63,812 nt of DNA, filler included, from Octopus bimaculoides (GCF_001194135.2; 5 parts of 5 records of this genome joined end to end with filler, not necessarily neighbours in it); one strand, 5' to 3'; positions 8,494-63,567 are shown, counted from the first letter of the whole stretch. Notes: generated by a model from the sequence alone, not told the origin. Program-made: numbers and translations.

Positions 8494-9343
8494 GTTATTA
8501 CTACAGAAATTATAGCCAACACCGTTTTTTTGCTACAACATTTCGTATTGAGAAGTCAGATGTAAAAAAGCAATGAGATCGGAGATAAAAATGGGTAATG
8601 AATGTATATGCCATATTTCAGACGTTTCTATTCCTTCATCTGCACCCATCTAATCTGCTCTTGCCTCCGAACACATTGCCTACATAGCCACTGCATACAG
8701 CGGTGTTAAGTTATTGCATATACCAATTTACATATTAAACACATTCCTAGGTGTAAATATTTATGACTTGTAGGCATGTAGTATTTCGTTATGCAACCAT
8801 AACATATTATAAAGTATATTAAATGTTTTTATGAATGAACACCATGTTCTACTGTGTTAGCAGTACTCTTTACATCATTTTGTTTAGGTTATTTCTACAG
8901 AAATTATAGCTAGCCCTGATATTTTGCGACAACATTTCATATCGAGACGTCAGATGTGGTTTACATGGTGTTGACCCATAACAAAGTACCACGTGTCTAT
9001 AAGTCATTAATATTTACATACCAGCTCCAGGAATGTGTTTAATATGTAAATTGGTATATCCAATAACTTAACACCGCTGTATGCAGTGGCTATATAAGCA
9101 ATGTGTTTGGAGACAAGAGTGGATTAGATGGGTGCTGATGAAGGGGCAAAACCTCCAAAATATGACATATAGACTCATTATCCATTTTTGTCTCTGATCT
9201 CATTGTTTCTTTACATCCGATGATGTCTCAATACAAAATGTTGTATTGCTAATGCAATAGAACATTCCTAAAAACATTTAATATTCTTTATAGTATATTA
9301 TGGCTGCATAACGAAATATCACATGCCTACAAGTCATTAATAT
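8494..9343. repeat. Fold-back of a 394-bp tandem unit carrying hammerhead-like motifs (Penelope pLTR/retrozyme-like)
   Basis: Direct repeat 8494/8888. Inverted pairs 8534-8748 vs 9029-9245 and 8755-8837 vs 9263-9343. Confidence 0.8.
9128..9178 (+). ncRNA. Degenerate type I hammerhead ribozyme (G12->A); sister copy on minus strand at 8593-8655
   Basis: ATGGGTG CTGATGA A GGGG caaaac CTCC AAAA TATG a CATA TA GACTCAT. Stems I, II and III can all be drawn. Confidence 0.55.
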
Positions 9344-10056
9344 ATATACATATGTATGTATATACACATAAATGTATAAGCACATGCACACACACACACA
9401 TATATATGCAAGCATATATATATATATATATATATATGCAGACATAACCATGTATGAATTTGTGCATGTCAAAATGATGTAATTTTTTGGGAAAAAGCCC
9501 CCCAAAAATGGTGTTCTTAAAATGAAGTTCCTTGCAATATTTGTTTTCCACTAAGGCAACAAGCTGGCAGAAATGTTAACATGCTGGGCGAAATGCTTAG
9601 CAGTATTTCATCTGTCTTTATGTTCTGAGTTCAAATTCTGCCAAGGTCGACTTTGCCTTTCATCCTTTTGGGGGTCGATAAATTAAGTACCAGTTGCATA
9701 GTCTCCACCTCAAAAATTTCGAACCTTGTGCCTAGAGTAGAAAAGAATATTTGTTCTCTACTGAATTACTGAAACTCCCATACTGTTTTGTTCTTCAAGA
9801 ACTGAAGCTGCAAATTAGCAATTTGTCTATTGGAAATCTGTAACAACAATTACAATATAGAATTAATATAAAAATAATAATGAACTTATAGTATATATTG
9901 CTCAGGTGCACTACAAGCTCAGAGCATCAACATCATTTTATTTAGCTGCTCTATATACAACTATCTCTGAGATTTTCATTATAAAATTTCGAAAAATATT
10001 TTATAAAATTTTATACATAGACAGATAACACCTATTTAATTTTATCTATGCTTTCA

Positions 10057-10223
10057 TCCTTTAGCATTTAAACTGGCCATATCTAGCTCAAATATTCTAC
10101 CTGTTTAATGTTAAAACTGGCTCAATCCATCCCCTCAGAGTTGCAAGATAATGCATGATTAGTTCAAAACAATGTCAATAAATAAGCATTACCTTTGACA
10201 GCATAATCTGAAAGCTAAAGAGT
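10057..10223. mobile_element. piggyBac-type MITE, diverged copy
   Basis: Ends cctttagcatttaaac...ctgaaagctaaagag|ttaa match the 18887-19092 element. Partial copy at about 36281-36328. Confidence 0.6.
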
Positions 10224-10589
10224 TAAGTGACCTTTTGTCTAAATGGGATGATTCATAATTATCTTAATCACAATCTACATTTTTCAGGTCAGAGACTTCT
10301 TTCATTCTACTTTTGGTCAAGCTCAAACAACTTGTCTTTGTTATTTAACTCAAAGTCAATACTTTGCATGAGCAAGCCTATGATCAAAGCATGCCATCAG
10401 GAACATCTCATCATTTTTGAGGACTGTTACCAAAGACTATATTACCCAATGTACTTTGTTCTTATAAAAGACAATAGGGCATAATTTTAGAGAGATTTGG
10501 CCACTGTTTCTAGAAAGTCAAGCGACTATGTTGGCTTGTATTAAAAAAACAGCCATTTTTATAAACAGAAAATTGTTTTCCTTCCCTAC

Positions 10590-10720
10590 ATATCATCATC
10601 ATCATCATCTCTTAACATCTACTTTTCTGGGTTTTCATGAGTTGGACAAGATTATGCTGAGACAGAGTTGACTTCAACCAGATATTTCTATCTTGATGTA
10701 ATAATCTCCCAATCCATCAA
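10590..10720 (-). mobile_element. 3' end of RTE-related repeat with (GAT)n tail; similar pieces at 18320-18500(+) and 21020-21130(-)
   Basis: Resembles the ccaacccatg..agcatggaaa..gga.gttaaa.gatgatgat terminus of the RTE at 61090-61980. Confidence 0.55.
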
Positions 10721-11449
10721 ACAACAAGCAATCTAAACATGTTTAAATGAAGAACTGGGAACAGATGATCCCATAGAAATGAGTCCTTTGTTTACAAAGA
10801 TTGTGCAACATATCAGACATACTAAGAAGCCCAGATGTGCTTTGTAGTGGACTACTAGCAAACAACACCATTAATAAAGCCATTGTTTATAATCACCTTC
10901 CTTTTACCATAACATGATATTTATAGATTATAATAATCAACACATAAGCACATTTTCAGGTTTAGTATTCTGAAAAAATATTTGTAAATTAAAGGAGAGT
11001 GATTAACAGTAGCAATTCTACTGCATAGCACCTTGGACAAGTTTCTTTTACTATAGTCCTGGGCCAACCAAAGCTTTGAGAGTGGATTTAACAGACAGAC
11101 ACTGAAATAAGCCCATTGTATATGTGTTTGTTGTTGTTCTTCACCAACACTTGACAACTTAGCTTCTTTACATCCTTGTAACTTAGCAGTTCACCAAAAG
11201 CTAACATTAGAATAAGTACCAGATTAAGAAGAACTAAGTACAGTAGTCAATTCGTTTCATTAAATCCTTTCTAGTGCCCCAGTGTGGCAGCAGTTCAAGT
11301 AAAAGATAAAAGATAACTAGTGGGACAACTCAATATTTTCTGGTGTAGTGAAGAAGCTTATTGACCTCTAATGGAAAGGAGCTCTTTTATCAATCTGCTT
11401 GGATTCCTATGCTTCTAAATTAGTGTTGCAATTTTACTCTGTCTCTACT

Positions 11450-12455
11450 CTGCCCAATGCTTTTTTAAGCATTGGCTATGTGGGGCCTTTTTTGCCAATG
11501 CTTTATCATGGCACTTCTTGTCCAACTTTAGCTTAGATTTTAGTCTTTCCATAATTTTTTTTCGCTCACTCACCTCCTTTCTTTTATTTTTCACAACTAA
11601 ATTTCTTTTCAATGTGTGTTTTGTTTTTGTTGGCTACCTTGAAGAGAGAAAACTTATTTCTGTTTACACTTGTATTTCACAACTATTTGTATTGACTTTC
11701 TAGTATTCTTTTCTAGATATTCTCGCAGTGTAATTTACTGCCTCATCTACAGACAAACACCGTCAACCACTTGCTTCCAGAATTCTCTCTTTTGTATTTC
11801 TCTTGGTAAATCACTCTTCAGTAGACCAAAGGTTTCAATTGGTTGGTTGATAATTTTTCTGATCGCCTTTCTATGAGCATTTGACTCATTACATCATCCT
11901 TGATATGAAAGCAGTGTCCACAGAATCTGTCTTCTTTCCTTTATGGTGGAGATAACTATTAGAGGATTACCCCAAAAGAACCTGGTTTGTTGCATGAGAC
12001 CACCATTTGATGTTTAAATGTAACTCTCAGAAGTCTTGTGCATGTTCCATCTAGTTTTCTTTCCAGTACCAAAGTTAGAGTCCATGTAGTGCTGCTGTAT
12101 AATAGTTTTCCAGCTACATACATAAAACCTCTAACTCTTTATATTCATGGTAAATATCTTTCTATATCAGACATTATTTTTCCTGTTATGCAATCTGGTC
12201 TTTCTTGGTTTCATTACCTTCCAATTGAGAATTTTGTAATTGTACAGTATTTTTCTGACAGTAAGAGTACTGATATCCATTACCTTATTATTTTTTCTTT
12301 TGCATTTGCATTTATTTTGCATTTAGTTCTGTTTTAAGTATTAATCTAATGCATCTACAATATTCCTTCCTAATCTTTGCTTTCATTTCTCTGTATTCCA
12401 CATTGTCTACTTCATTGATTCCTAAGTATTTGTATAACTTTGGTCTAATTCTCTT
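11450..12455 (-). pseudogene. Degenerate R4/Dong-clade LINE, RT thumb and downstream region, interrupted by an RTE-type piece
   Basis: Minus strand from 12434: YKYLGINEVDNVEYREMKAKIRKEYCRCIRLILKTELNAK, then SDIERYL. Many stops and frameshifts. Confidence 0.7.
11880..12110 (-). pseudogene. RTE/RTEX-type LINE RT C-terminal fragment
   Basis: KLLYSSTTWTLTLVLERKLDGTCTRLLR resembles the LLYGxExWTLTxxLExKLDGxYTRxLR motif. Confidence 0.6.
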
Positions 12456-13049
12456 ATCTTAGTGTTTTCTTTTTTTTTTATCTAGCATGTTATTAGTGTT
12501 TTTGATTAATTTTTATCCTCTTCAAGGTTACCTTCACACGTCATCACCATCATTGTCTTCATCGTTGTCATCATCTTCACTACTGCTATCACTATCAGCA
12601 TCATCATTCTTTCTTACTGTCATTGTCCACATCATTACCGTCATCATCATCGTCAATGTTATCATCATTGGTACTGTCATTGTCATCATCAGCATTATCA
12701 TCCTCATCAATATTGTCATCATCATAATCATCATCTGCTATAATAATATTCCATCACAACATGTGAATGAGAAAGGAAGGGGTGATAGATGAATAAGGCA
12801 GGAAGGAAGGAAGGGGTGATGGCAAACTGGTAGTAGGGGCGTTTCAACTCTGTGTTAGTATATGTGTGTGTAAAAGGGAGGCATGTGAATGTGTGTGTGT
12901 GTGTGTATGTGTGTGTGTGTGTGTGTATGCAAGTGTGTGTGTGTATGCGAGTGTGTGTGTGTATGTGTGTGTGGTTTGTGCAATGGAAGTGGAATGGTGA
13001 ACATTCAACGCTGAAAAGAAAAATCAAACAGTGTTTCAACTCTGTCTGA

Positions 13050-13125
<76 letters not shown>

Positions 13126-13724: not shown

Positions 13725-13766
<42 letters not shown>

Positions 13767-21726: not shown

Positions 21727-22960
21727 TAGCAGAGCCACCCGGCGTTACCCGGGAATGAAATTGTTGCTTATTGGTACTTGGAGACTTTTACGAAAATTAA
21801 AATGAGGATTAAATGAAAAAAATTATTTACTTGAATATCCTCACAAAAGTAATTGAAATAAATGGCGATTGTGGAACTGAAGGAATTTTGGTGATACATT
21901 TGATAGAGGTAGTAGAGAGCCAATCTGATGATAAATCTGACCTTGGATCTTGAAAGTTTGCATGAATCCTGGCTCAGTTATATCTTTCTTTTGTGGCCCC
22001 AAATGATGTCATCTGTAGAGCAGCATTGTACTGTCTAATTTTGTTTTGAAAGTGCTTGGAATTTTGATCAGTTGATGATAACAGTTTCTTCAATGGCTCT
22101 GGAGGTTGGGGGACTGCAGGGAGTTTAACCTTTCCACCACTGCAGCACAGTGCAAGTGTCTCTCCAGGCCACTTCCTTGCTTTACAATGAATGCACTCAG
22201 TTGTCATTGCACCAATGGAAACTCTAGTGTCATCCGCATGATGAACTGCTGGATCATAANNNNNNNNNNNNNNNNNNNNNNNNNNNNNNNNNNNNNNNNN
22301 NNNNNNNNNNNNNNNNNNNNNNNNNNNNNNNNNNNNNNNNNNNNNNNNNNNNNNNNNNNNNNNNNNNNNNNNNNNNNNNNNNNNNNNNNNNNNNNNNNNN
22401 NNNNNNNNNNNNNNNNNNNNNNNNNNNNNNNNNNNNNNNNNNNNNNNNNNNNNNNNNNNNNNNNNNNNNNNNNNNNNNNNNNNNNNNNNNNNNNNNNNNN
22501 NNNNNNNNNNNNNNNNNNNNNNNNNNNNNNNNNNNNNNNNNNNNNNNNNNNNNNNNNNNNNNNNNNNNNNNNNNNNNNNNNNNNNNNNNNNNNNNNNNNN
22601 NNNNNNNNNNNNNNNNNNNNNNNNNNNNNNNNNNNNNNNNNNNNNNNNNNNNNCTTCTGTTAGTAAATTATGAAATTACTTACATCAGTAAATGTGAGTA
22701 AACTTTTAGTGAGAACAGTAACGATTGAAGTGAAGGTGAAAAAAAACTATGGCTACCGGAAGTTGACATTGAGGAACCTTTTTAAAGAAGTGAATCTTAA
22801 ATATAAAGCAATATTATTTATTTTTAATAAAAAAATCAAATGAAGAGCCTAACATTTATCCGAGGTCAAATTATTCATGCTTCACAAGTATGGAAGTAAA
22901 TGGTGAAGCCGTTTTCACGTGATAAGCGATTACACACACATCTCTATTTTATATATTAGA
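21726..22960 (-). mobile_element. Internally deleted Helitron with both termini, inserted in (TA)n
   Basis: Minus-strand 5' end A|TCTAATATATAAAATAGAG at 22960. 3' hairpin CCCGG-GTAACG-CCGGG (21753-21738), then CTAG|T (21729-21726). Gap at 22260-22653. Confidence 0.9.
21870..22207 (-). pseudogene. Helitron RepHel N-terminal fragment (frameshifted)
   Basis: CIHCKARKWPGETLALCCSGGKVKLPAVPQPPEPLKKLL...IRQYNAALQMTSFG, then after a frameshift PGFMQTFKIQGQIYHQIGSLLP...PKFLQF. Confidence 0.9.
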
Positions 22961-23189: not shown

Positions 23190-23520
23190 ATTTTGGAAGT
23201 GTTGGTTGGATATTTGTTGTGCGATGACGCTCGATCGTGTACATATTTAACACTAGCACTTTCAAATTTTATATTGGGAATGCTACACTGATGATGAGAA
23301 GTAAGTAAACATGCTTCAATCTCGAAACACGTCTGTGGCTAATTGGAGTCGTGTGGATTCGTTATTTTACTCTTTGCCTGCGTAAAAAAGTGTGTTACTG
23401 TCTGGGAGATTCTTACAGTTGTAGAAAAGGAATTTTTAACTCTTATTTCTAAATTCAGTATGTGGTGAAGCAAATAACTGACCCCTAATTATAATTATGT
23501 TTACAATTATGGAATATTTA
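23190..23520 (+). repeat. Hammerhead-bearing non-coding repeat, homologous to 50165-50460 on the minus strand
   Basis: Shared downstream block ttcgttatttt...gtagaaaa...tatttctaaatt..gtatgtggtgaagcaa...aattatgttt and shared upstream gatg.cgc..gatcg. Confidence 0.8.
23282..23339 (+). ncRNA. Minimal type I hammerhead ribozyme, apparently intact; predicted cleavage after C23333 (GUC)
   Basis: GCTACA CTGATGA T GAGA (20 nt) TCTC GAAA CACG TC TGTGGC: 6-bp stem I, 4-bp stem II, 2-bp stem III, all conserved core positions present. Confidence 0.85.
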
Positions 23521-23872
23521 TATATATATGTGTATGTATGTATGTAGTCTATATACTCTCAAAAATTTTGTTAATCCTTCGTCACTATCTAGCTCATTCT
23601 GAACTTTTCTTAGAGCCCTTTTGTGACTCTGTGTGGTTGTTTGTGTGTGTGTGTAATATTATATAAATGATTGTAGTATGTACTTGTTTTTTGTTTCAGC
23701 ACACGATCTCAAATCCAGTCACTTGCTATGCAAGTATATCTCCCTAAAATACAAATAATATATTCAATATATTAACTAATATATGAATACCACATGCACA
23801 TGTATATATATATGTGTGTGTGTGTGTGTGTTTGTATACATACATAAATATATATTTATGAATATATATATG

Positions 23873-24051
23873 AAAAATAAGAAAATGGAGATATAGTATT
23901 TAATAAAGATTTATTATCAGGAAAAATCAAACATAATCCCTTACAGCTGTTTCAATTAAGCCCAATAAAGATTAAATAAATACTAAAATCATTTTGGGAC
24001 AAAATCTCTTCAGAGTAGTAGAAAAAAGATATACCCTTAGTTTTCTATGCA
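23873..24051 (+). repeat. About 180-bp repeat with an inverted copy at 25170-25353
   Basis: aaaataagaaaatggagat...cttacagctgtttca.ttaagc.caataaagattaa...gatatacccttagtttt.tatgca aligns to the reverse complement, roughly 85% by eye. Confidence 0.85.
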
Positions 24052-24783: not shown

Positions 24784-25554
24784 TGTATATATGGGTGTAT
24801 ATATTTATATATATACACGCATATATTTATATGTGTTTATGTATACAAACACACACACACTCACACACACACGCACACATATATATACACTGAATTAAAA
24901 GATGAATGTTAGACTTGTGTTAATATATGTTTCTGTATTAACTTTTTATAGGTTTTTCTCAATTTTATAAACAACCCACTAAAGTATTTTATTTATGATA
25001 CTTTTCTTCATTGTAATTTACTATTTAATCTCTATTTATTTACCCATTATTACCTTAATTATATCTACATATTATTCCTTGCCTATTAAAATAACCTGTA
25101 ACTTAGGAATATACCACTATTAGCCATGAATAATATTTTTCAGCCTGCTGTGATGATTCTATAATACAGTGCATAAAAAAACTAAGGGTATATCTTTTTC
25201 TAGTCCTCTGAAGAGATTTGTCCCCCAAAAATGATTTTAATAATTTTCATTTAATCTTTATTGAGCTTAACTGAAACAGCTGTAAGGAACTATGTTTGAT
25301 TTTTGCTGATAATAAATTTTTATTAAATGCTACATCTCCATTTTCTTATTTTCCAGTGGAATGATTATAAACCATTGGTTTATATACAAACCTATTATTT
25401 TATGAATATTATTATTCCCAATAAATATAATGTATTGAGCAGTAATTCATTGGATGATACCATCCATTAACGAGGCTAACTTAACCTCTAATTGAATTGT
25501 ATTTATGTATATATAAACTATTACATCAAGAAATATAATAACACTTGAACTAGA

Positions 25555-40334: not shown

Positions 40335-40923
40335 GCAACAACAACAACAACAGCAACAATGTTTATGAAAACAACAATAACGACAAAGAAATCACTGTAG
40401 CATCGACGGCGTCGTAATCCGTAAGGACATCTAATATATAGAGCCTAGAATAAAATATCTCTTGGCAATTGTACCACTTGAGGATATAATCTACAAATAA
40501 TCATATGATTTATTATATATCAATAAATAATGAATGGATCTCCATCAGTTCCAACGACGAGGGTCCCAGTTGTTTGATCAATGGAGTTATTTATTTGCTG
40601 AATTAGAGTATAAAGCAGATGAATTACTTGGTTGTATTCCAGTGTTAATTCTGACCTTAATATGTTTTTTACATGGAAAATCCCGCATGATACAGTCTAT
40701 AACAATGCGGGTTAGTCATGTAAATACAGGTGCAATTCATCTCCGACGGGTCCCTAAACAGATTCCTTTTCACCAATTTAATTCAGCAGAACATTGCGAG
40801 AAAATCGAAGATACGGGCGAAGGCACTTACCGAACTCCGAAAAAAACATTTTAACTGTTTAGATATTACTATTCTGAAAACAGCGGACAAGGCATGCACA
40901 GGAAGTAATATACCGTGTGTCTG

Positions 40924-40968
<45 letters not shown>

Positions 40969-41188
40969 NNNNNNNNNNNNNNNNNNNNNNNNNNNNNNNN
41001 NNNNNNNNNNNNNNNNNNNNNNNNNNNNNNNNNNNNNNNNNNNNNNNNNNNNNNNNNNNNNNNNNNNNNNNNNNNNNNNNNNNNNNNNNNNNNNNNNNNN
41101 NNNNNNNNNNNNNNNNNNNNNNNNNNNNNNNNNNNNNNNNNNNNNNNNNNNNNNNNNNNNNNNNNNNNNNNNNNNNNNNNNNNNNNNN

Positions 41189-42211
41189 GTTTTAGGGAAA
41201 ATAACCAAGTTTCAAGAACTCATCGATGAAAATCCACTATCACATATAGAAAAATCAATAATTAAAAGCACAATAAATGAGTATAATATAAAACAAAGTA
41301 AATATCATAAGATAAAGATAATAAAATGACTACACGTGTTTCATAACTAATTTTCAAATAGAAAGGAAATTTAAATCGATTAAAATCAATTGAAATTATC
41401 GAAAATAAATTCTATTCAAAAATATAGCTAATCGTCGTAATTAGAACAATAATTAAAATAAATAAATAAATATATTAACCAACAATAAGTACCAAATGAA
41501 TTTATATGAAATACTTATTTTATAAAGATAGAAAAATTATTAAAAATATCAAAATATCAAAATAATAAACATTCAATAATCATCCCTTCATCCATTATAA
41601 TATATGCTAACATGTATATTATATACAAAAACCAGCTTACATAAATTATCATTGTTTTAAATTATCATTGCTTTAAATACAATTTGAACGAAGTTTAAGT
41701 TTAAAATAATAATGAAGATAAAATTAGTACATATTTAACCGGTGTAATAGTTAAAGCTATACTATTTAAAACTAAAAACGTTTATTTAATTATCATTAAA
41801 AATCAATTGAATAATGAAAAATACAAGAATATTTATTTCTACAAACGTAGAAATAAAAATCAAAATATGAATGAAAAAATTATGAATGAAAAAATTAGGA
41901 AAGAAAAACATTATTAATAATATAAGATTAAACTTTATATATACATACAAAGTTTTAATTAAAAAACCTTTAACGATATTACAAACAATAAAGACTAATT
42001 ATTAATCAAGAATAATCGAAAATATATCAACACTATTCAAATCGAAGTTCTAATATGTTGAAATGAAACTATATTTTATTATCTTTATCTTATGATATTT
42101 ACTTTGTTTTATATTATACTCATTTATTGTGCTTTTAATTATTATTTTTTCTATATGTGATAGTGGATTTTCATCGATGAGTTCTTGAAACTTGGTTATT
42201 TTCCCTAAAAC
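41189..42211. repeat. 139-bp near-perfect inverted repeat around a 745-bp extremely AT-rich spacer
   Basis: 41189-41327 vs 42073-42211, about 2 mismatches; the left arm abuts a gap. Confidence 0.85.
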
Positions 42212-42486: not shown

Positions 42487-42820
42487 GTTGGATCCAAGTC
42501 TCACCCAGAGACCTCAAGATACAACAAGCTAGAAGTTCATGTAGGTGTTATGCCTAGGGTACCATATATTTGGATTTGTACATAGTGTTGTTCTAGAGAA
42601 TGTTTAAGAAACCGTAAGAAAATTATGTGTTTTTTGAAAATTTGAGATCACATAGACAGTATTTTACGTAGGATATGGGCAGTTCCCAAGAGCACTATCT
42701 TTTGAACTTCAGCCATTTTGGGGTTTCCTGGTATCTGAGCTAGGTAGTAATCAGCCCGTTTCGCTGTCATTCCCAGGGCACCTATGACAATAGGTATTGT
42801 TTTAGTCTTCAGGTTCCACA
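42487..42820 (-). mobile_element. R4/Dong-clade LINE 3' end
   Basis: WNLKTKTIPIVIGALGMTAKRADYYLAQIPGNPKMAEVQKIVLLGTAHILRKILSM* (stop 42650-42648), then 3' UTR. Confidence 0.9.
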
Positions 42821-42960: not shown

Positions 42961-43220
42961 TATCTTATTTTATATCTTTTGTTTCAGTTGTTTGACTGCG
43001 GCCATGGTGAGACAGCATCTTGAATGTTTTAGACGAACGAATCGACCCAAGTACGTATTTTCGAACCCTGATACTTATTTAAAGGGCCACATAGTGTCTG
43101 TGTAAGTATGTATGTATATGTATGCATATATGTATGTATGTATCTAAGTATATATGTATGTATGTAGTTATGTATGTATATTTATATAGATTGTCGACCA
43201 TACATACTTGAGATACCAGC

Positions 43221-43397
43221 TGTGTATTTGCCAGCAGGCTGCGCTTTGACTAGGTGGAAATTACTGTCACAAAATGCCGGATACTGAAAGCCCTTAAACA
43301 GATGAGACAAATTCCAGACTATTAGGTATTTTAATAGCCGGTGCTTTGAGAGAGTAATCTCCACCATATCAAATCGCAGCCCAACGGCAAATACACG
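43221..43397. mobile_element. Palindromic MITE-like element with ~60-bp diverged arms
   Basis: gtgtatttgcc...ggctgcg.tttga...ggtgga.attact.tc.caaa on both arms in inverted orientation. Confidence 0.7.
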
Positions 43398-43464
43398 TAG
43401 CGTATAGGTAAGTATGTGTGATCGATTATAATTACTAGGCTAGCGTTGCTTCTATTTCATATTT

Positions 43465-44807: not shown

Positions 44808-44872
44808 ATATATATTGATAGTGGATCATATATCCGGAAGTGAAGCACACTCTTAAAGTTAAAGCAGTAATG

Positions 44873-45056
44873 TATTTACATGAAGTTAGATAAATGTCCG
44901 GTCCTAGATGACCAATGGTTTCGCATCCATAAAGCGCATATCTTTATGCCGGCGATCATTGAAGCCTAACTAGTCGACTATAAACTAAAATCGCTTTATG
45001 AATACAAAACCAGCGGTTGCTCTATGACCGAACATATATTTTATTTCATGTAAATA
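44873..45056. repeat. Palindromic element with ~65-bp diverged arms
   Basis: tatttacatgaa termini; ggtc.taga...acc..tggttt.g.at.cataaagcg on both arms. Confidence 0.7.
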
Positions 45057-45394
45057 TATATATAAATATAAATATAAATATATATATAAATATAAATATA
45101 AATATATATATATATANNNNNNNNNNNNNNNNNNNNNNNNNNNNNNNNNNNNNNNNNNNNNNNNNNNNNNNNNNNNNNNNNNNNNNNNNNNNNNNNNNNN
45201 NNNNNNNNNNNNNNNNNNNNNNNNNNNNNNNNNNNNNNNNNNNNNNNNNNNNNNNNNNNNNNNNNNNNNNNNNNNNNNNNNNNNNNNNNNNNNNNNNNNN
45301 NNNNNNNATCTATATATATATATATCTACACACATACACACATATAGATAGATAGAAATACGTATGTATGTATGTGTGTATGTATGTATGTATA

Positions 45395-48102: not shown

Positions 48103-50164
48103 AATTAATTAATTCCATACTTCTCAGGAATATGCAAGAGCCAGTCTGACAATGGTAAAAGATCTTAACTTGCGACAAAGATGTAGACTTAGCTGATATT
48201 TCACATATTTATAATATTTATGGGTAAATAACCATGAAACGTATAAAAAATCTCAAGACACGGAAGAGAAATTCGCAAGATGTTTCATTCTTATCACAAG
48301 CGTCTAATATAGAAAACCACAGATGCAGGAAATTGATGGACAGTATATTTCCAGAAATTTTGCTCCATTTTTTTTTTATGTGGTATAAGTCGAGACTAAC
48401 TCGACTAATTTGGGACGAATGGTGAGTTTATTCAAGAAAAATTGTTTAGTAAATCACAGATAATGGAATCAATAAGTCATTGGGTAAAACAAAGAGATTT
48501 GTCGCACAAAAATATATACAACGCGTTCAACACAGAACTAGAGAAAAAAGCCTACAAAATATTAAGTCACGTATTAACAATTGCTATATTTAATCAGTGT
48601 AAAGTAGACACCGAAACCGAACAAAGTTCACATCCGATGGCATGCACTTCATGAATTGTTCTGATCATATTGTCACTTCATTAGGATGCTAAATAATAAT
48701 TTGATCTGAAGTATAGAGTAATTTGTTACGTGATGGAGTCTGAGTTGTAGTTCAGGACGAAAGAAGATATCCAGATACATATAGAAACAAATGCACACAC
48801 GCACACACGCGCGCGCGCACAGGCATATATTTTCAGCATTATATCCGTTTATCCATATGCATGTAGATATATGTACTCACAAGTAATCTCTTACCTTCTC
48901 AGTCACATTCACCTGTGAACGCAAAAATATACACAGAAACACACATAAATACTTACATTTGTACATTCGTGTGTGCACGTATACATACATATATAGATCT
49001 ATATCTATATATGTACATGTATAAACGTATATGCATATGTAATGTATATGTATATATGTATGTATGTATATATATCTATATATGTATATATATATATAAG
49101 NNNNNNNNNNNNNNNNNNNNNNNNNNNNNNNNNNNNNNNNNNNNNNNNNNNNNNNNNNNNNNNNNNNNNNNNNNNNNNNNNNNNNNNNNNNNNNNNNNNN
49201 NNNNNNNNNNNNNNNNNNNNNNNNNNNNNNNNNNNNNNNNNNNNNNNNNNNNNNNNNNNNNNNNNNNNNNNNNNNNNNNNNNNNNNNNNNNNNNNNNNNN
49301 NNNNNNNNNNNNNNATATATATGCATATGTCTGTGTGTGTTGTGTGTTTGTGTGTACATGTCTTTCAAAATATGTATAGGATATACTTGGGTACTTATCT
49401 TTCTGTATGCCTTTGCACATATGTATGCATAATTGAAAGTTTATACTCCTGTTGAATACACACACACAAATACACACACAGAAACACAAATACTCACTCA
49501 CACACCCACTCATACACACACACACACAGACACACACACACACCATATGGCATCATCAGTCTCTTACTGCAGTGACCGAAGCCAATGCAATTGATTATAT
49601 ATCTATTCAACACACGCACACTGACACACAGCAAACACACAGAAAAGAAGTCAGCCGGTATGAATAATCATAACCAAATATGCTAAATAACATATTCAAG
49701 TTTTACTTCACTATACTTTAATTGCAGAAAGCAAAATTGAATAAATTATTAAGGCTTTGTTTTGGGCTGTATTATTCCCTCGAATTTTGGAATCAATCCA
49801 AGACGGAGATTGTTTCAGGCAAACGCTTGTTCTGGTTCCTGTTAAGTCTTATTCGGGTTCTATATTACAGAAATATGTACAACTTAATAGCTTATGTAAT
49901 ATTGGCATTTCACTGTGACAATATCGAAAGCTTTATTGAATAATGTCATTTATGTAAGTTTACGATTGTCATATGCATTCATAATTTCTGCGGTCATTGA
50001 TACTATTAATATATCCATACATGCGATTTCTATAAGGGTGTATATACATACATACATACACACACACACGAAGAAATCGTGATATATATAAAGCACGATA
50101 TCTTCGTGATCAGAGGTGTTCGAAAACCGAGGTACTATTGTGTGTGTATATATATATATATATA

Positions 50165-50880
50165 TAAACATAATTAAGGGATCACCAAAATTGCTTCACC
50201 ACATACCGAAATTTAGAAATAGTAATTAAAATACTAATTTTTCTACTACAATATGTCTCCACAGATAGCATTACTCGTAACTCACATAGGCGAAAAAGAA
50301 GAAAAAATAACGAAACCAACCAGCCTTAGTTAATCACGTACGCTTTTCGGGATTAGAATGGTATAAAATTCATTTCCTTCTTCAGCATGATATTCTAGAT
50401 TATATTTTTGAAAATTCTGACAAAAACCATGCATGCTCGATCAGGCGACATCGAACATCATATAAGAGAAACAGCATTTCCGAATTTATATAGACGAGTA
50501 AGTACGTATCCATCCTCAAGATTCACCATGTGCGTCAGAAGCAATACTGCAGAAAATCTGTAATTTACTACCAGGGAGTGAATAATAATTATAGATATAG
50601 GGTAAAGAATTATTAATCTATTAATAAAATAATAATTAATAATTTTACCAAGTAGTTCGGTATGGCAAAAAAACTATTATCGGTAAAAACTTATACAAAA
50701 TGTTATTTTTTATATAATTATAAACATAATTAAGGGATCAACAAAAGTTGCTTCACCACATACCGAAATTTAGAAATAGCAGTTAAAATACTTAGTCTTC
50801 TACTACAATATGTCTCCATAGATAGCATTACTCGTAACTCACATAGGCAAAAAAGAAGAAAAAAATAACGAAACCAACCA
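50165..50880 (-). repeat. Partial tandem (556-bp period) of a hammerhead-bearing repeat
   Basis: Direct repeats 50165-50321 and 50721-50880, about 90% identical by eye, flank the hammerhead. Confidence 0.85.
50333..50391 (-). ncRNA. Minimal type I hammerhead, near-intact (C15.2->A)
   Basis: ATCATG CTGAAGA A GG(aAATG..CATT..)CC GAAA AGCG TA CGTGAT: 6-bp stem I; GAAAAGCGUA is one change from GAAACGCGUA. Confidence 0.65.
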
Positions 50881-50899
50881 TCCATAATTTTCCCCGAAC

Positions 50900-51560
50900 G
50901 GGTTGATACATATCCTATTATTCCAATAATAATAGTTATAAAACTATAAGTGTATTTCGCGTAGGACCATATATTAATTTTTTTCTTTCTCCTGTATTTA
51001 TATGGCCCTATTTGTGTACAGTGGGTAGCTTATTTCCACCACAAATCATCTATTTTTCTCGTAGTTCCACATAGCAATATCTGTCCGGTTGTGTTTAACT
51101 TGGTGACAGTTTTAATTTCTATGTTCCACCAATATTCTTTTGACAATCTGTCTCAATATAGAAAACTTCGTCTGTTAACACTTTCTTTTATCTTATCCTG
51201 TTCCAGATTCTTCTGGTCACCGCATCACTGCATCATGCCTCTTTGAAAAATAATATCTAGAATACATGTTCTTGCAGTTGGCAATAATGTGTTTGATGGT
51301 AGTAGTAGGAGGTGATTTCTTGTTCTTAAACAGCATGGAGGTAATCTTCAAAGTGGGATGTCATGAAATTGTCGGCACTCTATACTAAGCTTTTGATATC
51401 ATCAATACCTTCTATGACTTGCGTCTTTCGTACCCAGTATGCATGCATTACACTCTCACTGAATTTTTCCATTTTTATATTTTGTTCTGCTGATAAATAA
51501 AATTTACCAATTATCCTTAGGGAAAGATCTGCATCAGTTCATATTTCATGCCTTTCCTTA
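50900..51560 (-). pseudogene. RLE-type (R4/Dong-like) LINE C-terminus: zinc knuckle and PD-(D/E)xK endonuclease remnant
   Basis: TIKHIIANCKNMYSRYYFSKRHDAV...KEYWWNIEIKTVTK...KHNRTDI...VVEISYP...EKE..YGP. Confidence 0.8.
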
Positions 51561-54500
51561 AGTTCACTAGCTATCCTAATTATGCTGTTGATTTCCTGCT
51601 CGAAATCTTGGCCAAGATATTTACTGGTCTCTTTCCTTTGCTGCAAATATTGCTTCAGTGTCATAACACCTGCTTCAAATGATATTAATACAGATTTAAG
51701 ACCACTGCCACCATCCTTGCATGGAAGATACAGCCCGTCTAATTTTCTATTGATGTTGAAGTTTCTAGTAATACCGAGCAGCTTGCGAGTTCGTACGTCT
51801 ATATATGAATGTTTATATATGTGTTCTCTGTTTTTAATTATTTAAATTCTTCCTTTGAAGGAGAAGCTGGTTTCTAACAAACATACAAAGCTCCATCGTT
51901 GGAAGGTAGATAACAAAAACAATGTCCCATTTTAAACCTGAGTATATCGCATGTATGTATGTATGTATGTGTGTATGTATAAATGAATGAATGAATGAAT
52001 GAATGCATCAGCGTGTATATGAATAAACGAGGAATTTTCTGAGAAGTGAAAATGCTATCCGTCTACCATTTAAATTGCACCCACGCCCGCATTGAACATA
52101 AAGTAGAGTAACGGTTGAGCAATGTATATTAGTATGAATTATCTTCATGTATTATACATTTCATTGTATTAAGTACTCGTTTATTCAAAACGTATATACG
52201 TTATGTGTGTGTGTATACACGTATATATCTGCATTTACATACATGTGTGTGTGTGAGTGTGTGTGTTTTGGAAATTTAGGGAACGAAGTAGATGAAATCA
52301 AGGCTAAATATGTTTCGTAGCTAACGGAACCTCGGAAGTCAGAGAAATAATAATCAAAACTTTATAAAATATTATGTATACATATATACAACCTACACAT
52401 CTATGCATATGTTTATGTACATATATGCGAATACATATATACATATATATGTATATATACATCTCTCTCTCTCTCTCTCTCTCTATCCATATATATATAT
52501 ATATATATNNNNNNNNNNNNNNNNNNNNNNNNNNNNNNNNNNNNNNNNNNNNNNNNNNNNNNNNNNNNNNNNNNNNNNNNNNNNNNNNNNNNNNNNNNNN
52601 NNNNNNNNNNNNNNNNNNNNNNNNNNNNNNNNNNNNNNNNNNNNNNNNNNNNNNNNNNNNNNNNNNNNNNNNNNNNNNNNNNNNNNNNNNNNNNNNNNNN
52701 NNNNNNNNNNNNNNNNNNNNNNNNNNNNNNNNNNNNNNNNNNNNNNNNNNNNNNNNNNNNNNNNNNNNNNNNNNNNNNNNNNNNNNNNNNNNNNNNNNNN
52801 NNNNNNNNNNNNNNNNNNNNNNNNNNNNNNNNNNNNNNNNNNNNNNNNNNNNNNNNNNNNNNNNNNNNNNNNNNNNNNNNNNNNNNNNNNNNNNNNNNNN
52901 NNNNNNNNNNNNNNNNNNNNNNNNNNNNNNNNNNNNNNNNNNNNNNNNNNNNNNNNNNNNNNNNNNNNNNNNNNNNNNNNNNNNNNNNNNNNNNNNNNNN
53001 NNNNNNNNNNNNNNNNNNNNNNNNNNNNNNNNNNNNNNNNNNNNNNNNNNNNNNNNNNNNNNNNNNNNNNNNNNNNNNNNNNNNNNNNNNNNNNNNNNNN
53101 NNNNNNNNNNNNNNNNNNNNNNNNNNNNNNNNNNNNNNNNNNNNNNNNNNNNNNNNNNNNNNNNNNNNNNNNNNNNNNNNNNNNNNNNNNNNNNNNNNNN
53201 NNNNNNNNNNNNNNNNNNNNNNNNNNNNNNNNNNNNNNNNNNNNNNNNNNNNNNNNNNNNNNNNNNNNNNNNNNNNNNNNNNNNNNNNNNNNNNNNNNNN
53301 NNNNNNNNNNNNNNNNNNNNNNNNNNNNNNNNNNNNNNNNNNNNNNNNNNNNNNNNNNNNNNNNNNNNNNNNNNNNNNNNNATGGTGAAGGGGAGAAAAA
53401 GGGAATATCTCTCTCTTTTCTCTTTTCAAAAAAGATATTTTTCCGGCTTTCGATATTTTACCCTCGTTCTGCTCTAACGACCCTCAATGTCAGTTTTCGT
53501 TCGGTTTCCTTGTATATTTCCATTGTCCTATTTTTGTTCCCAACTTTGACCCTCCATAAATCTAAAATTTTATTTTGGTATTTATGCAACTGTCTTCGAA
53601 GACTCATATTGTCGCTCAATGCTCAAAATGAGAAGTAGATAGACAGCAGCGAAATGATTAAGGGTCGTTCTTTGTGTTACTTGTCCTGTCTTCCATTTTT
53701 TCTCTCGTTGCTTGCGTATTTAATTCATTTGTTTTTAAATTTCATGTTGTTTAATGTTGATGACATCCTGTACTGATATATGCATATACATATATATATG
53801 TCTATATATATATATATATATTGTATTATTATTTAAATGAATGTATGTATGTATGTATGTATGTATGTATGTATGTATGTATGTATGTATGAACACAACC
53901 ACTCAGTCACACGCATTACATAATCAGAAATGTATGGGATGTGCTTGTGCATAGAATCGTAAAAGAACTTAAAGAAACAAATAGCGGGATTGCTAGGGTA
54001 ACCAAATGGAATGTAGGAAATCACACAGGAGAGCAGTTATGTTTGTGTGTGTGTGTGTGTGTATAAACATATATGTGTGTGTGTATGTGTGTATTATGTG
54101 CATATATATATATATACATGCACACGCTCATATTGAGAGAGAGGAGAACCATATTGTCTGTGCGTGTATGTGTGTGTGTATGCGTGTGTGTGTGTGTGTG
54201 AGTGTGCGTGCGTGCGTCTGTACGTCTACGTTTGAACGTGTGGTGTGAACGTGAGTGAGCGCACACGTTTGCATGTGCGTGAGTGTTCATGTTTCAGCAG
54301 AAAATAGGAAGTTGATTTATAAGTTTCGAGAATGTTTCTGTGGTACCCGACGGAAGTAATATTATTGTGAACATGAAAACTCACTATAGCAAAGTGTATT
54401 TTCCAAGTATGACATTCTAAATAGGCAAAATGTGTTCTTGTATATTATAAAAATATATACATGTATATTTCAATGCTATGTTGTTGCCTAGTAAATTTCT

Positions 54501-55375: not shown

Positions 55376-56089
55376 TGTGTGTGCGTGCATGTGTGTGAGT
55401 GTGTGTGTATATGTGCATGTTTGTACGTGCGTGTGTGTGTATCGCGGTTAATAATTTGAAACTAAATAATAAATTGATATTTCATGATCCTACTCCTGTT
55501 ATCATAATTTTTGCCAATCACAGATCCCTATTTCTATATGTTTTAGCGGATGATTTTAATTTTAATTGTTGATTTTGAAAATATATTGACAAAAACTCAC
55601 ATCAAATAGACATTTAATCTCTCCGATATACTCCTAACATTAATTTTTAAAGGCTAGGCAATACATGCAAATGCATGAAAATTTGAAATGTGTTTTGTTT
55701 CATAGTGTTTAATTATGTATCTATTTTCTCCTCTTATAAGCATTACCGGACACAAAATACAGTTCCTGCATTTGTTGTATGGACTTATTTAGTGTTGATT
55801 AGAGCTGTATCTGCTATTATTATTATTTGGTTGTCTACGTGTGATCTCTAAAGTGTATCGCTTCAAATAATATATTCAAATTATAAGTATTAAGGTTCTA
55901 TATATTAATATGTATATGCGAACATGCTAGTATTGTAGGAATATGACATTTAATTTAGGACTGAATATTTAATGTGTTTCCCGCGTTTACGAACAAAGAA
56001 AAAAAGCGTGCGCAGTAAGTTTTAATGGGATTTTAACTCTGCATGAACGACACACTTGACCAAACGGAAACAAATGATGTTTCCGTCAT

Positions 56090-56260
56090 ACATTTTTATG
56101 CATACTATTTCGTGGTTTGTAATAATTACTTCAACCGTTGAAAAGGATGTCCCGATTTATCTCACCAATATAGTCTTGATAAGTACTTCAAGGTAGACAG
56201 AGAAATGTTATACTGATACGGTACATCAAAAAGAAATGTGTGTGGACCAATATACTCAAC
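56090..56260 (+). pseudogene. Possible Penelope RT remnant
   Basis: DKYFKVDREMLY*YGTSKRNVCGPIYST resembles NNxFxFxxxxYxQxxGTxMGxxxxPxYAN; short and heavily decayed. Confidence 0.3.
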
Positions 56261-56559
56261 TTAGAGAAGGCACGAACATTTATGGAGGTAGTAAAGTTGC
56301 TCCCTTTACATTCTTCAATACACTTTCATGTGAAGCCTAAGGTACACGCATGGATGAACTCAAGATTCCATAGTCTGTGTTAGAAATTATAGGAGACCAG
56401 ATCTCGCCATCGCATTAAATTACAATCTCGCTTAGGTAGAAATTAAGGAAAAAGCATTTCGCAGCAAAGTCTACGGACTGATCGACAGGATATATTGGTC
56501 TGTCTTACTGGTTCAAGAAAAACCCATATTACTGCCTAGCATAATATGACATCTTCAGC

Positions 56560-58942: not shown

Positions 58943-59537
58943 GATCATTTCGAAAACTTAGGTGTTGTAAGAGATATGCTGTGAGCACTCGACCGCTTAA
59001 TCAGTTATTTATTGCTCAGTTTGTTTCTTTAGTACATAGTTTTATATCTAACTATTTACAGAAGATCTGTAGTTTTGTGCACAAACTGAGAACAGTTTTG
59101 GTGTTGTACACAAGACCGGAAACAATTTTGTCTGGAAGTTTTAATAAAATAGGAAAACAGAGAGTCACACATACATACTTTCATTCCTGTTTCTCTCCTC
59201 ACATTTCCTCTCTTCTGTGCTTTGATACAGAAGGGAAGGATGTGTACATACACGATATCTTGATACTGAGTGGACTAGGTTCCACAATGACTGGCCTCTG
59301 ATATTAAATAAAGTGTTAACTCTTATGGTATGCAAATTAGCAAATCCATTCCTCTCAAACTATTAGATCCGAATGTATATACGAACAGCCTCTCTATTTG
59401 CTTCACTGAAATAGGTCAAGTAATGTAGACAATTCCGATAAGACTCCAATTAAGGCTTAAAAATTGATTAAGAAGGTTCATCATCTTCTTCAATTTAATG
59501 AAAAAATAACTTTGACGTCTATCTGTCTACTCCGTAG

Positions 59538-59579
<42 letters not shown>

Positions 59580-60947: not shown

Positions 60948-61007
<60 letters not shown>

Positions 61008-61089
61008 NNNNNNNNNNNNNNNNNNNNNNNNNNNNNNNNNNNNNNNNNNNNTTAATTAATTAANNNNNNNNNNNNNNNNNNNNNNNNNN

Positions 61090-61980
61090 NNNNNNNNNNN
61101 NNNNNNNATATATTGTATGGACATGTGACGAGAATGGATGAGGATAGCTGCGGGAAAAAGTGCCACACCCTAGTGGTTGAGGGAACCCATGGAAGAGGCA
61201 GGACTAGGAAGACTTGGGATGAGGTGGTGAAGCACGACCTCCAAACATTAGGCCTCACCGAGGCAATGACTTGTGACCGAGACCTTTGGTAATATGCTGT
61301 GCGTGAGAAGACCTGGCAAGCCAAGGGAGACCAAAATACAAGGCCTCTGCCAGGGATGTAGCCAGCTCACTTACGTGTAACATTCCTTCATTGGACACTA
61401 AACTCTGCTTGCGAAGACCTGTGAAATCAAAATCAAAATCGAATTAAATTCGACAACTTGCACCCATGCTAACGTCGTCTTCTTCATCGGAAATGAAACT
61501 TGGCTTGCGAAGACCTATTGGGGCAAGCGAAAGCGAAACCTTCAATGGCACCTGTGCCCAGTATCGCCTTCCTGGCACTTGTGCCAGTGGCACGTGAAAA
61601 GACATTCGAGCAAGATCATTGCCAGTGCCGATGGACTGGCTCCTGTGCAGGTGACACATAAAATACACCATTTTGAGCATGGCCGTTGCCAGTACTGCCT
61701 GACTGGCCTTCATGCCGATGGCACATAAAAGCACCCACTACACTCTCGAAGTGGTTGNNNNNNNNNNCCGTTGCCAGTACTGCCTGACTGGCCTTCATGC
61801 CGATGGCACATAAAAGCACCCACTACACTCTCGAAGTGGTTGGCATTAAGAAGGGCATCCATCTGTAGAAACTCTGCCAAATCAGATTGGAGCCTGGTGC
61901 AGCCATCTGGTTTGCCAGTCCTCAGTCAAATCATCCAACCCATGCAAGCATGGAAAGCGGATGTTAAACGATGATGATGA
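61090..61980 (+). mobile_element. RTE-clade LINE 3' portion (ORF end, long 3' UTR, (GAT)n tail)
   Basis: YGHVTRMDEDSCGKKCHTLVVEGTHGRGRTRKTWDEVVKHDLQTLGLTEAMTCDRDLW; ends catggaaagcggatgttaaacgatgatgatgat. Confidence 0.9.
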
Positions 61981-62189
61981 TTCCACCAAAGGAATTCACC
62001 TTCGTACAAATTTTAGCCCATTTGCAGGAATGGTGCCTGGGGTAAAATGCCTGGATTATCTGATCCCCACTCAATTACTGCATATTTATAAACACACCTG
62101 TACACATACTTGTGTCTATGTTGTCTATATCTATCACTCTGCTTACTTACATATCAACATTTCACATATCTATCGAAACATACACATGC

Positions 62190-62223
<34 letters not shown>

Positions 62224-62498
62224 NNNNNNNNNNNNNNNNNNNNNNNNNNNNNNNNNNNNNNNNNNNNNNNNNNNNNNNNNNNNNNNNNNNNNNNNNNNNN
62301 NNNNNNNNNNNNNNNNNNNNNNNATATGTATGTGTATATAATGATAGATAGATATACATACATACATGCACACACACTCATTCACACACCCATATACACA
62401 CATACAATATCTCTAAGCACATTTAAATACACGAGCATGAATGTACATGTGCATATAGATATGTATGTATTTAATATTCACATACATACATACATACA

Positions 62499-62534
<36 letters not shown>

Positions 62535-63107
62535 TATTTAGATTTATACCTTTATGCATATGTATGGCTGACAGAACAGGCATTTCAAATACATATCAAC
62601 GTGTACATGTGCATATGGAAATGCACATAAACGCCTGCAGGTATTTCCATAGAAATGGCCGATTCCATGGAAATAGGAATATATTGACCAATACCTGCTG
62701 AGTGAAATAAATTTGGTAGATAGGAGGTGTCAGTAAAATGTATTAATGTTACTGTTGTTATTGGTGGTGGTGGTGGTGGTGGTGGTGCTATTGTTGTTGC
62801 TGTTGTTATATTGTTATTAATATTATCATAATTGTTCAAATTCTGCTGAAGTCCACTTGGTCTTTCATCCTTTCAGAGTTCATAAGTACCAGTTAAGCAC
62901 TGAGGGGTCAATGTAATCAGCTTACCCCACACCCCCACGAAATTGCTGGCTTTATGTTAAACTTTGAAATCAATATTATTATTATTATTGTTGTTGTTGT
63001 ATTTGAGGATGGTCATGTTCCCAGTTTAGCCAATAAAAACACACGCACTATATATTTGGTGTTGATTTGCTTCAGCTTTATTTTATTTTTTACATTAATC
63101 GTATTTC

Positions 63108-63152
63108 GGCCAGAGTTCTTTCGTCACTCTTCTGTGACATCATCAGGGGTCC
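63108..63152 (-). ncRNA. Minimal type I hammerhead, left arm
   Basis: GGACCC CTGATGA T GTCAC agaaga GTGAC GAAA GAAC TC TGGCC; the 1.1-2.1 pair is mismatched. Confidence 0.6.
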
Positions 63153-63352
63153 TTTGCTTTCTTCTTTCTTATTCATGTGTCTTTCCTTACTAAAAATCAG
63201 CCATTTTGTATTTTGTATATATAATAGACCTCGTAGTTTGCTGGTAAATCATGTTTACTGGCTCAGAGTTCGTTGAATATGTAATTAATCAGAATACAAA
63301 ATGGCTGATCGTTAGTAAGGAAAGACACACAAATAAGAAAGAAGAAAGCAAA

Positions 63353-63396
63353 GGACCACTGATGAGGTCAGGGAAGTGTGACGAAAGAACTCTGGC
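63353..63396 (+). ncRNA. Minimal type I hammerhead, right arm; predicted cleavage after C63392 (CUC)
   Basis: GGACCA CTGATGA G GTCA gggaagtg TGAC GAAA GAAC TC TGGC; core intact, stem I only 3 contiguous bp. Confidence 0.6.
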
Positions 63397-63567
63397 GGAA
63401 ATATGATTAATGTAAAAAATAGAATAAAGCTGAAGCAAATTAACACCAAATATACAGTGCGTGTGTTTTTATTGGCTAAACTGACAATATGACCATCCAC
63501 AAATACAACAATATCTGTTTCAACACACGATTTCACATCAAGAATCATGCAAAACGAATATATAAAC

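Follow-up and report, generated by a model that had tools for sequence, protein, structure and literature searches.

The window analysed here, a stretch of 63,812 nucleotides from Octopus bimaculoides (GCF_001194135.2) in which five parts are joined with filler, carries eight motifs shaped like type I hammerhead ribozymes. They form four related pairs (families A, B, C, and E, Table 1). The families share no sequence beyond the core in local alignments compared with shuffles, and the three that the first-pass annotation had named are indeed mutually unrelated. The full type I core (CUGANGA...GAAA...UH, three stems, open at stem I) is intact in the motifs with cores at 23288 and 63359; the other six have a type I core with defects, partly mended in the case of family A by its majority letters. 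Describing the six motifs of the named families as well formed was too generous, since only 23288 and 63359 pass a strict descriptor and 8642, 9135, 63146, and 50385 are defective.

Table 1. Hammerhead-bearing insertions in the window, with the start of each ribozyme core and the base inserted after A9.
Feature	Position	Strand	Core start	Extra base	Remarks
Family A minus arm	8486..8957	-			just over one unit; 394-nt period; adjoins assembly gap
Family A hammerhead, decayed	8597..8650	-	8642	A	U4 changed; 11.1 read as U
Family A plus arm	8965..9343	+			head-to-head with minus arm
Family A hammerhead, decayed	9127..9179	+	9135	A	G12 (9157) and first stem I pair (9172) lost
Family B solo copy	23190..23520	+			flanked by TA-rich microsatellites
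Family B hammerhead, best preserved	23282..23339	+	23288	U	passes strict descriptor; GUC triplet
Family E minus arm	23871..24051	-	24013		hammerhead-like motif
Family E plus arm	25170..25355	+	25208		score 32.6
Family B partial tandem	50155..50889	-			179-nt 3' piece (50711-50889) followed by about 556 nt (hammerhead, same 3' end) and (TA)n
Family B hammerhead, partly decayed	50333..50391	-	50385	A	mismatches in stems II and III
Family C minus arm	62994..63215	-	63146	U	ends in CAA/TAA microsatellite
Family C plus arm	63290..63570	+	63359	G	arm to 63511 plus one-sided extension of about 55 nt

The two copies of family B are 78.3% identical over 180 aligned nt, and the partial tandem at 50 kb is a direct repeat at 91.6%. 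The motif at 23288 has the highest relaxed score in the window (37.3; 0 of 1000 shuffles), with 6 pairs in stem I, 4 pairs plus an outer segment in stem II, 2 pairs in stem III, and position 17 at 23333. The 50-kb motif likewise retains all 6 stem I pairs, three of them through double-sided, compensatory changes. The claim that all motifs lie in partial-tandem or inverted layouts holds for five of the six; the exception is the 23-kb copy, for which no partner was seen in the flanking DNA tested. Family C consists of head-to-head arms 74 nt apart (91.4% identity over 222 nt); stem I has a mismatched first pair at 63146 and 3 pairs at 63359. Family E likewise has head-to-head arms (87.8% identity with gaps), separated by a TA tract, by a gap and by AT-rich DNA of about 290 nt. 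Its motifs have a stem II region of 53-58 nt and a stem III that forms a perfect palindrome of 8 nt. We read them without an extra base after A9, although the best fit of the scan for 25208 used one. This inverted pair was overlooked in the first-pass annotation. A tiny stem III, proposed for all the named motifs, is found in families B and C (about 2 bp), not in family A, where it has 4-5 pairs. Its palindromy is perfect only in family E and one change off in each family B copy; in family A the stem is near-palindromic and longer, and in family C it is not palindromic.

These features are largely those of the hammerheads of metazoan Penelope-like elements (PLEs). In the parts covered of Cervera and de la Pena (2014, PMC4209133), these ribozymes are likewise of type I, with an unpaired base between positions 9 and 10.1 and G10.1, and they likewise come as several unrelated families per genome, mostly as solitary copies with some opposite-strand pairs. 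Their stem III is short or palindromic, a trait seen here to varying degrees. Unlike the hammerheads described there, family B has a two-part stem II (28-29 nt). In family A, the 4-5-pair stem III sits on a long extension of stem I; family E lacks the extra base and has the stem II region of 53-58 nt; and the copy at 63359 departs from the H consensus with its extra G. The layouts in turn resemble PLE insertions as described in the parts of Craig et al. (2021, PMC8557442) covered, which include partial tandems, an inverted 5'-truncated copy, a one-sided tail and microsatellite targets. Arms placed head to head, a tail on one side and flanking microsatellites agree with this anatomy and favor PLE-style insertion. 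The earlier proposal that ORF-less repeats here carry hammerheads of PLE type and are arranged in the manner of PLEs is supported.

The elements of Craig et al. (2021, PMC8557442) encode a reverse transcriptase, whereas no RT or GIY-YIG sequence and no PLE ORF was seen beside the motifs here: the 138 frames scanned, chosen from 329, gave no Pfam match at E<=0.001. A possible PLE-like RT remnant (40.7-41.3 kb) found no confirmation and thus led to no local PLE protein. Elsewhere in the window, a Helitron remnant matches an Octopus protein at 60% and many other proteins too, and the frame at 51.5-51.8 kb has no match; the SINE repeats make an octopus genome probable.

Families B, C, and E might nevertheless be 5'-truncated 3' ends (pLTR pieces) of autonomous PLEs rather than independent small elements, a reading with only slightly less than an even chance. 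Ordinary autonomous PLEs commonly integrate in partially tandem form together with an inverted copy. The portion of PMC4209133 covered interprets most single min-HHRs as truncated PLEs and describes opposite-strand pairs 100-700 bp apart. The solo copy at 23 kb would fit, as would the arms of families C (222 nt) and E (about 180 nt), which lack a head-to-tail junction. What speaks against truncation is the AT-rich, stop-rich DNA upstream of the motif (about 310 nt in the 50-kb copy and 290 nt in the 25-kb copy), where the frames scanned have no Pfam match; nor does the reading fit family A.

Family A has an ORF-less unit of about 394 nt (330-nt period in the plus arm) with 33-34% GC and one motif. 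Its two arms are 87.3% identical over 245 aligned nt. Within the minus arm, 8486-8563 repeats 8880-8957 at 82%. The plus arm starts with about 50 nt from the end of the preceding unit, continues through the junction into a 330-nt unit with an internal deletion, and ends before (AT)n, with an identical end motif at 9001 and 9331; contig depth near zero at 9232-9260 marks a copy-specific part. The motif at 8642 has 8 pairs in stem I and 4-5 in stem III, with G12 at 8619 and cleavage position 17 at 8605. The motif at 9135 sits on the long stem I extension and folds with z = -5.06 (0 of 200 shuffles equally stable). Folded as a circle, the 332-nt plus-arm unit reaches z -4.5, and the 394-nt unit does not rise above shuffles (z -0.9). 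Each arm holds about 1.2 units and a single decayed motif, and no copy in the window has two intact tandem hammerheads.

At an identity of at least 80%, 2852 contigs of X1 (organism A) and 2069 of X14 (organism B) map to family A, summed contig depth not being taken as copy number. The head-to-tail junction, seen in the minus and the plus arm of the window, recurs in other copies of the two organisms: back-joints from 9319-9335 to 9004-9041 occur in 5 X1 rows and 1 X14 row among 12 of 84 rows, and loose ends before 9027 bear the junction linker in 41 and 47 contigs. At 8781, loose ends continue into (AT)n in 65 and 75 contigs (agreement 0.63-0.64). Majority letters restore U4 at 8641 (1161/1381 of the depth in X1 and 752/909 in X14), as do the RNA reads (6/6 and 5/5), and the first stem I pair at 9172 (2548/3090 and 1106/1322); the majority letter at 8602 converts a G-U pair to G-C. 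A majority G12 at 9157 is inferred from contigs and RNA reads that cross over to the sequence of the minus arm at 8618-8621. Family A is thus non-coding and high in copy number, and its head-to-tail junction is fixed, as would be expected of a non-autonomous element and as had been proposed.

Given the recurrent junction, the shared end ahead of (AT)n and the majority letters that restore U4 and stem I, family A fits a non-LTR retrozyme and, on its sequence, is likely a non-autonomous member of this type known in other animals. Published retrozymes are about 170-400 nt long and low in GC, and the unit lies within the 150-450 nt expected of non-LTR retrozymes. The resemblance to the animal elements in the parts covered of Cervera and de la Pena (2020, PMC7229834) and of the preprint by Li, Clavereau and Pollet (2026, bioRxiv 10.64898/2026.07.22.740005) extends to an ORF-less, GC-poor unit (330-394 nt here) that has one type I hammerhead, a head-to-tail junction and many copies. 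Published retrozymes are defined mainly by canonical type I hammerheads, form dimers to long arrays and have been shown to yield circRNA; family A differs in its PLE-type extra base, about 1.2 units per arm, an inverted 5' arm and an RNA circle that is predicted. A PLE-type hammerhead within a 450-bp tandem repeat appears for Drosophila willistoni in Fig. S5 of PMC4209133. Two successive units with complete hammerheads, which define an "active" retrozyme in the portion of Li et al. (2026) covered, are absent from the window arms.

It is unlikely that family A is instead a satellite-like dispersed repeat derived from a PLE end, in which the hammerhead is an inherited passenger and no circular RNA step occurs. 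Both window copies are broken, and depth falls over the core (e.g., 1757 at 8623-8651 in X1), showing that in many copies stem II varies or sequence is lost. The mapped RNA reads (550 and 477, of which 85-86% continue into unlike sequence) carry no signal of cleavage or circles: starts and ends show no pile-up at the predicted cleavage sites, an observation that is no test of cleavage, and there are no back-joints among 15 of 265 joints (about 6% of each run, library selection not stated). On the other hand, majority letters restore the core and stem I, and the common end before (AT)n together with the inverted 5' arm points to target-primed insertion, not unequal crossover.

The extra base after A9, claimed for all six named motifs, is present in 6 of 6 and is followed by G10.1, which pairs with C11.1 in five; in 8642 the pair is G-U. 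It had been presented as a convergence, a reading that the literature does not support: according to the parts of PMC4209133 covered, a base after A9 followed by G is the consensus of animal PLE hammerheads, present at >80% in 56 representative motifs from 40 animal species including molluscs (Fig. S3). The alignment includes the molluscs Lottia and Crassostrea, and no cephalopod in those parts. The chrysanthemum chlorotic mottle viroid plus hammerhead (extra A10, reviewed in PMC3705267) also has one extra base between A9 and G10.1, in a different, viroid context. There, in the parts covered, U at this position speeds cleavage, A is tolerated, and C or G is strongly detrimental. Because of this effect of an extra G, the copy at 63359 can be argued to be impaired as well. 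Independent origins of the base in each family, as a new ribozyme variant of this lineage, are very improbable. The lack of similarity between families outside the core and the varying identity of the base would agree with such origins, but the consensus across 40 animal species speaks against them, as does family E, which reads best without the base in the same window. Shared ancestry is the simpler explanation.

As for the reality of the motifs, the top eight matches of a relaxed window scan are the six named motifs and the two of family E. At scores of at least 31.3 the window, a selected one with 56,861 called bases, has 8 matches, where 1000 local dinucleotide shuffles average 0.026 per window and never exceed 1; the six named motifs score 32.1-37.3, and at 32.1 or more the shuffled mean is 0.020 per window, never above 1. 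The scoring was a hand-set scheme devised once the motifs were known, so this null is optimistic. The strict descriptor points in the same direction, with 2 matches against a mean of 0.017 and none of 300 shuffles reaching 2. The eight motifs are four related pairs and therefore represent four independent families, which is still far above chance. The proposal of six type I hammerhead-shaped motifs at a density above shuffled background is thereby confirmed, while the weaker cases at 16.4, 27.3, and 28.7 kb dissolve into background: 1.9, 5.3, and 21 matches per shuffled window are expected at the scores of 16422, 27268, and 28704, respectively, and the resemblance of the 27.3-kb site to family E is equalled by 37 of 100 shuffles. 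A U3-A8 core variant gave no match in the window. Chance matches in AT-rich repeats, which suffice for these weak cases, are refuted for the eight motifs by both scans and by the compensatory stem I changes of family B, even though seven of eight isolated motifs fold no better than shuffles (z -1.6 to +0.7).

Taken together, we give a probability of about three in four to the following explanation: the window holds five insertions of four non-coding families with mostly decayed type I hammerheads, six of these motifs being of PLE pattern, and family A (8.5-9.3 kb) is probably a retrozyme of the non-autonomous kind, which PLE enzymes would copy. The observed part of this explanation comprises the motifs, the layouts and the stem I compensation of family B and, for family A, copies in two organisms, the junction and the common end. 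The remainder, drawn from published work, would proceed as follows. A transcript longer than one unit would be cut by its hammerheads, acting as dimers where stem III has about 2 bp, and a host ligase could close the monomer into a circle. Insertion would follow from a nick that a PLE reverse transcriptase/GIY-YIG protein makes in a TA or AAT microsatellite; priming at the fixed 3' end with copying beyond one round would give partially tandem units and, in inverted orientation, a 5' copy. The window copies decayed later, and loss of CpG at positions 11.1-12 probably contributed. Families B, C, and E may be units of this kind or simply 3' ends left by truncated PLEs. This explanation is weakened by the lack of a PLE ORF beside any motif in the frames scanned, by RNA that is mostly read-through with neither end pile-up nor back-joint in the reads covered, and by the 394-nt unit being no stabler than shuffles as a circle; moreover, 1 of 9 Xenopus retrozyme dimers was cleaved in vitro in the parts of the preprint covered (bioRxiv 10.64898/2026.07.22.740005).

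In keeping with the earlier suspicion of under-annotation, Rfam reports no hammerhead family at E<=10 in the three regions scanned closely (62900-63600, 23190-23500, and 8478-9335); for the whole window, the matches considered are the best 150 of 366 rows. Its microRNA matches are microsatellite or inverted-repeat artefacts, all below gathering score among the rows shown. Exact-pattern scans of metagenome contigs for family C and for family A returned no match each. For the giant squid, the genome paper reports no more on hammerheads than their number of Rfam hits, 235, and the word ribozyme is absent from the main text of the O. vulgaris repeat annotation, as far as covered. We found no description of cephalopod retrozymes, although the supplements of PMC7229834 and the bioRxiv preprint and Lunse et al. 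(cited in PMC6765202) may hold cephalopod cases. At the level of the window, the pattern adds little, because it was published for animal PLEs in 2014, opposite-strand pairs and several families per genome included (PMC4209133, in the parts covered).

The useful remainder is a high-copy retrozyme-like family common to at least two organisms, probably cephalopods. More tentatively, and with odds that fall somewhat short of even, the genome may be unusually dense in Rfam-invisible ribozyme-bearing PLE derivatives, with family A as an intermediate caught in the act, whose circular unit is of retrozyme type while its hammerhead and insertion anatomy are those of PLEs, and family E perhaps as a long-stem-II variant missed by published descriptors. 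If so, the window would provide invertebrate evidence for a PLE origin of retrozymes, whose derivation from PLE pLTRs was tested by sequence only in frogs, in the parts covered of Li, Clavereau and Pollet (2026). Should family A share its ends with a local PLE and make circles, the PLE-origin model would extend to an invertebrate, and repeats probably left unnamed by annotation would be classified.

The window is AT-rich, animal-type DNA with many microsatellites and interspersed repeats (56,861 called bases). The short ones among these repeats seem to be of the octopus type. All six hammerhead motifs named in the first-pass annotation, designated here by core start and strand, are recovered by a hammerhead core scan. 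Their description as well formed holds under a strict type I descriptor for 23288(+) and 63359(+) only (2 of 6), the other four failing a descriptor that matched on average 0.017 times, and never twice, in 300 local dinucleotide shuffles. A relaxed score, tolerating one core change and set by hand once the motifs had been seen, ranks the six together with 25208(+) and 24013(-) as its top eight (31.3-37.3). Within the window these lie far above the shuffled control (mean 0.026, maximum 1 match at or above 31.3, n = 1000 shuffles), a distance that is still large although the eight form four related pairs. The weaker cases at 16.4, 27.3, and 28.7 kb (16422, 27268, 28704) fall away, ranking 13, 24, and 38 with 1.9, 5.3, and 21 equal matches expected per shuffled window. 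Rfam hammerhead families are absent from the listing for the three regions scanned closely. A borderline hammerhead-like candidate lies at 6585-6660 (+) (core 6593), with no second copy seen; a shuffled window is expected to yield 0.19 matches at its score of 28.0.

The published pattern is matched throughout by 23288 alone. According to the pair table, U4 is missing from 8642(-), and both G12 and the first stem I pair from 9135(+); in 63146(-) the first pair of stem I is broken, and in 50385(-) stems II and III contain mismatches. The extra base, unpaired between A9 and G10.1, is a G in 63359, which a viroid review describes as detrimental (PMC3705267). Sharing of this base had been taken as a notable feature; it is already the known signature of hammerheads of Penelope-like elements (PLEs) (PMC4209133). 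Several of the defects affect the CpG made up by C11.1 and G12: 8642 and the two family E copies have a C to T change there, and 9135 a G to A change. The CpG ratio of the window is 0.51; we infer methylation-type decay at these sites. Between the two copies of family B (23 and 50 kb), 6 of 6 stem I pairs are kept through three double-sided and two single-sided changes, indicating selection on RNA structure.

Local alignments over aligned positions give identities of 87.3% for the arms of family A (8.5-9.3 kb), 78.3% for the B copies, 91.4% for the arms of family C (63 kb) and 92.7% for those of a fourth, hammerhead-like family, E; they reveal no similarity among the four families. The proposed partial-tandem or inverted layouts apply to A, C, and E (head-to-head inverted pairs) and to B at 50 kb (partial tandem), and not to B at 23 kb, where the flanks tested contain no partner. 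Microsatellites of TA or AAT/CAA form the surroundings in which the repeats end, and the C plus arm is extended on one side. The same features characterize PLE insertions in Craig et al. (PMC8557442). Family E probably lacks the extra base and would be invisible to short-stem-II descriptors; each copy has one stem intact and one damaged.

Positions of repeat families and other features in the window
Feature	Position (strand)	Character
Family E	23871-24051 (-), 25170-25355 (+)	Stem II region 53-58 nt; perfect 8-nt palindromic stem III
Helitron Rep/helicase remnants	21871-22258 (-), 56067-56492 (+)	
Further repeat family	8156-8220, 53634-53698	80-84% alike; copy at 8176 has first half of hammerhead core, background score as full motif
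Self-inverted repeats	25953-26034, 26058-26107, 27855-28020, 35125-35358, 43194-43425, 44870-45059	Lack a high-scoring hammerhead motif; may be MITE-like elements or further inverted insertions of PLE type
Direct copies	31800-33035	Several, diverged; unit ~200-240 nt, CA tracts between

The family A region has shares of 0.24-0.76 in organisms A and B (read index). Reads and contigs were aligned to 8478-9335 at 80% likeness, 2852 contigs fitting in X1 (organism A) and 2069 in X14 (organism B). Among 40 of 308 rows of differing letters, the majority brings back U4 (position 8641) and the first stem I pair (position 9172) and changes a stem I G-U to G-C at 8602; G12 is not among these rows, and contigs and RNA reads cross from plus arm 9151-9153 to minus arm 8618-8621, which has G12. 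Back-joints lead from 9319-9335 to 9004-9041 through letters resembling the linker found in the window itself (6 of the 12 rows listed, out of 84), the same linker is carried by loose ends before 9027 (41 and 47 contigs), and loose ends at 8781 continue into (AT)n (65 and 75 contigs, agreement 0.63-0.64). These joints and ends identify family A as a non-coding unit (~394 nt, with a deletion in the plus arm) whose head-to-tail junction is fixed and whose copies share an insertion end. Many copies with the 3′ end joined at one and the same position, ~115 nt upstream of the hammerhead, would be unexpected for a truncated autonomous PLE.

In the two RNA runs (~6% of each read), 550 records out of 12.9 million and 477 out of 12.0 million match family A; most are <95% alike and 85-86% continue into unlike sequence, which looks like read-through of embedded copies. 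They display no end pile-up and no back-joint among 15 of 265 joints and, because library selection is unstated and ~6% of each run was read, bear on circles neither way. At 9100-9205 (+) the family A hammerhead is borne by a long extension of stem I (fold z -5.06), in which it differs from minimal PLE hammerheads and which might permit monomer folding.

No reverse transcriptase or endonuclease domain was matched by Pfam in 138 stop-free frames of at least 329; a PLE helper is suggested by motif type, layouts, and literature. Broken frames at 50890-51900 (-) and 42651-42818 (-) resemble R4/NeSL-type non-LTR elements in their C-terminal endonuclease region; a homolog search with the frame at 51.5-51.8 kb returned no matches. 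The family B partial tandem starts right inside the former. A decayed frame at 40724-41329 (+), in which a TC tract and a gap break the reading, has a DKA-type motif and resembles a Naiad PLE reverse transcriptase in its N-terminal part, an identity that Pfam and two homology searches did not confirm. Naiads have a DKA-type motif and lack canonical hammerheads (PMC8557442). In O. vulgaris, 31 recently active Penelope-like families are reported, a figure that bears on the window only if its lineage is octopus.

Minimal motifs number ~2000 in Schistosoma, ~4000 in coelacanth, and ~9000 in Xenopus, in several families each and with opposite-strand pairs (PMC4209133). Non-LTR retrozymes, small non-coding hammerhead-bearing retroelements, are defined in PMC7229834 and include 350-390-bp repeats of a mussel that hold ~5000 hammerhead copies; a 2026 preprint argues for retrozymes as non-autonomous PLE derivatives and notes that its tests of this left out non-vertebrates (bioRxiv 10.64898/2026.07.22.740005). 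Given these accounts, the earlier inference of non-autonomous, ribozyme-processed elements dependent on Penelope-like enzymes is the published model. No descriptive paper on octopus or cephalopod hammerheads or retrozymes was found in a search whose coverage left out one directly relevant paper and two supplement sets. The first-pass annotation stands in part, both in its observation and in its interpretation. At the level of sequence, family A has the features of a non-LTR retrozyme, but differs in having no two intact tandem ribozymes in the window. For families B, C, and E, either retrozyme-like units or PLE ends left by truncation are possible identities, and the window's motifs are predicted to work like the PLE hammerhead/retrozyme system.
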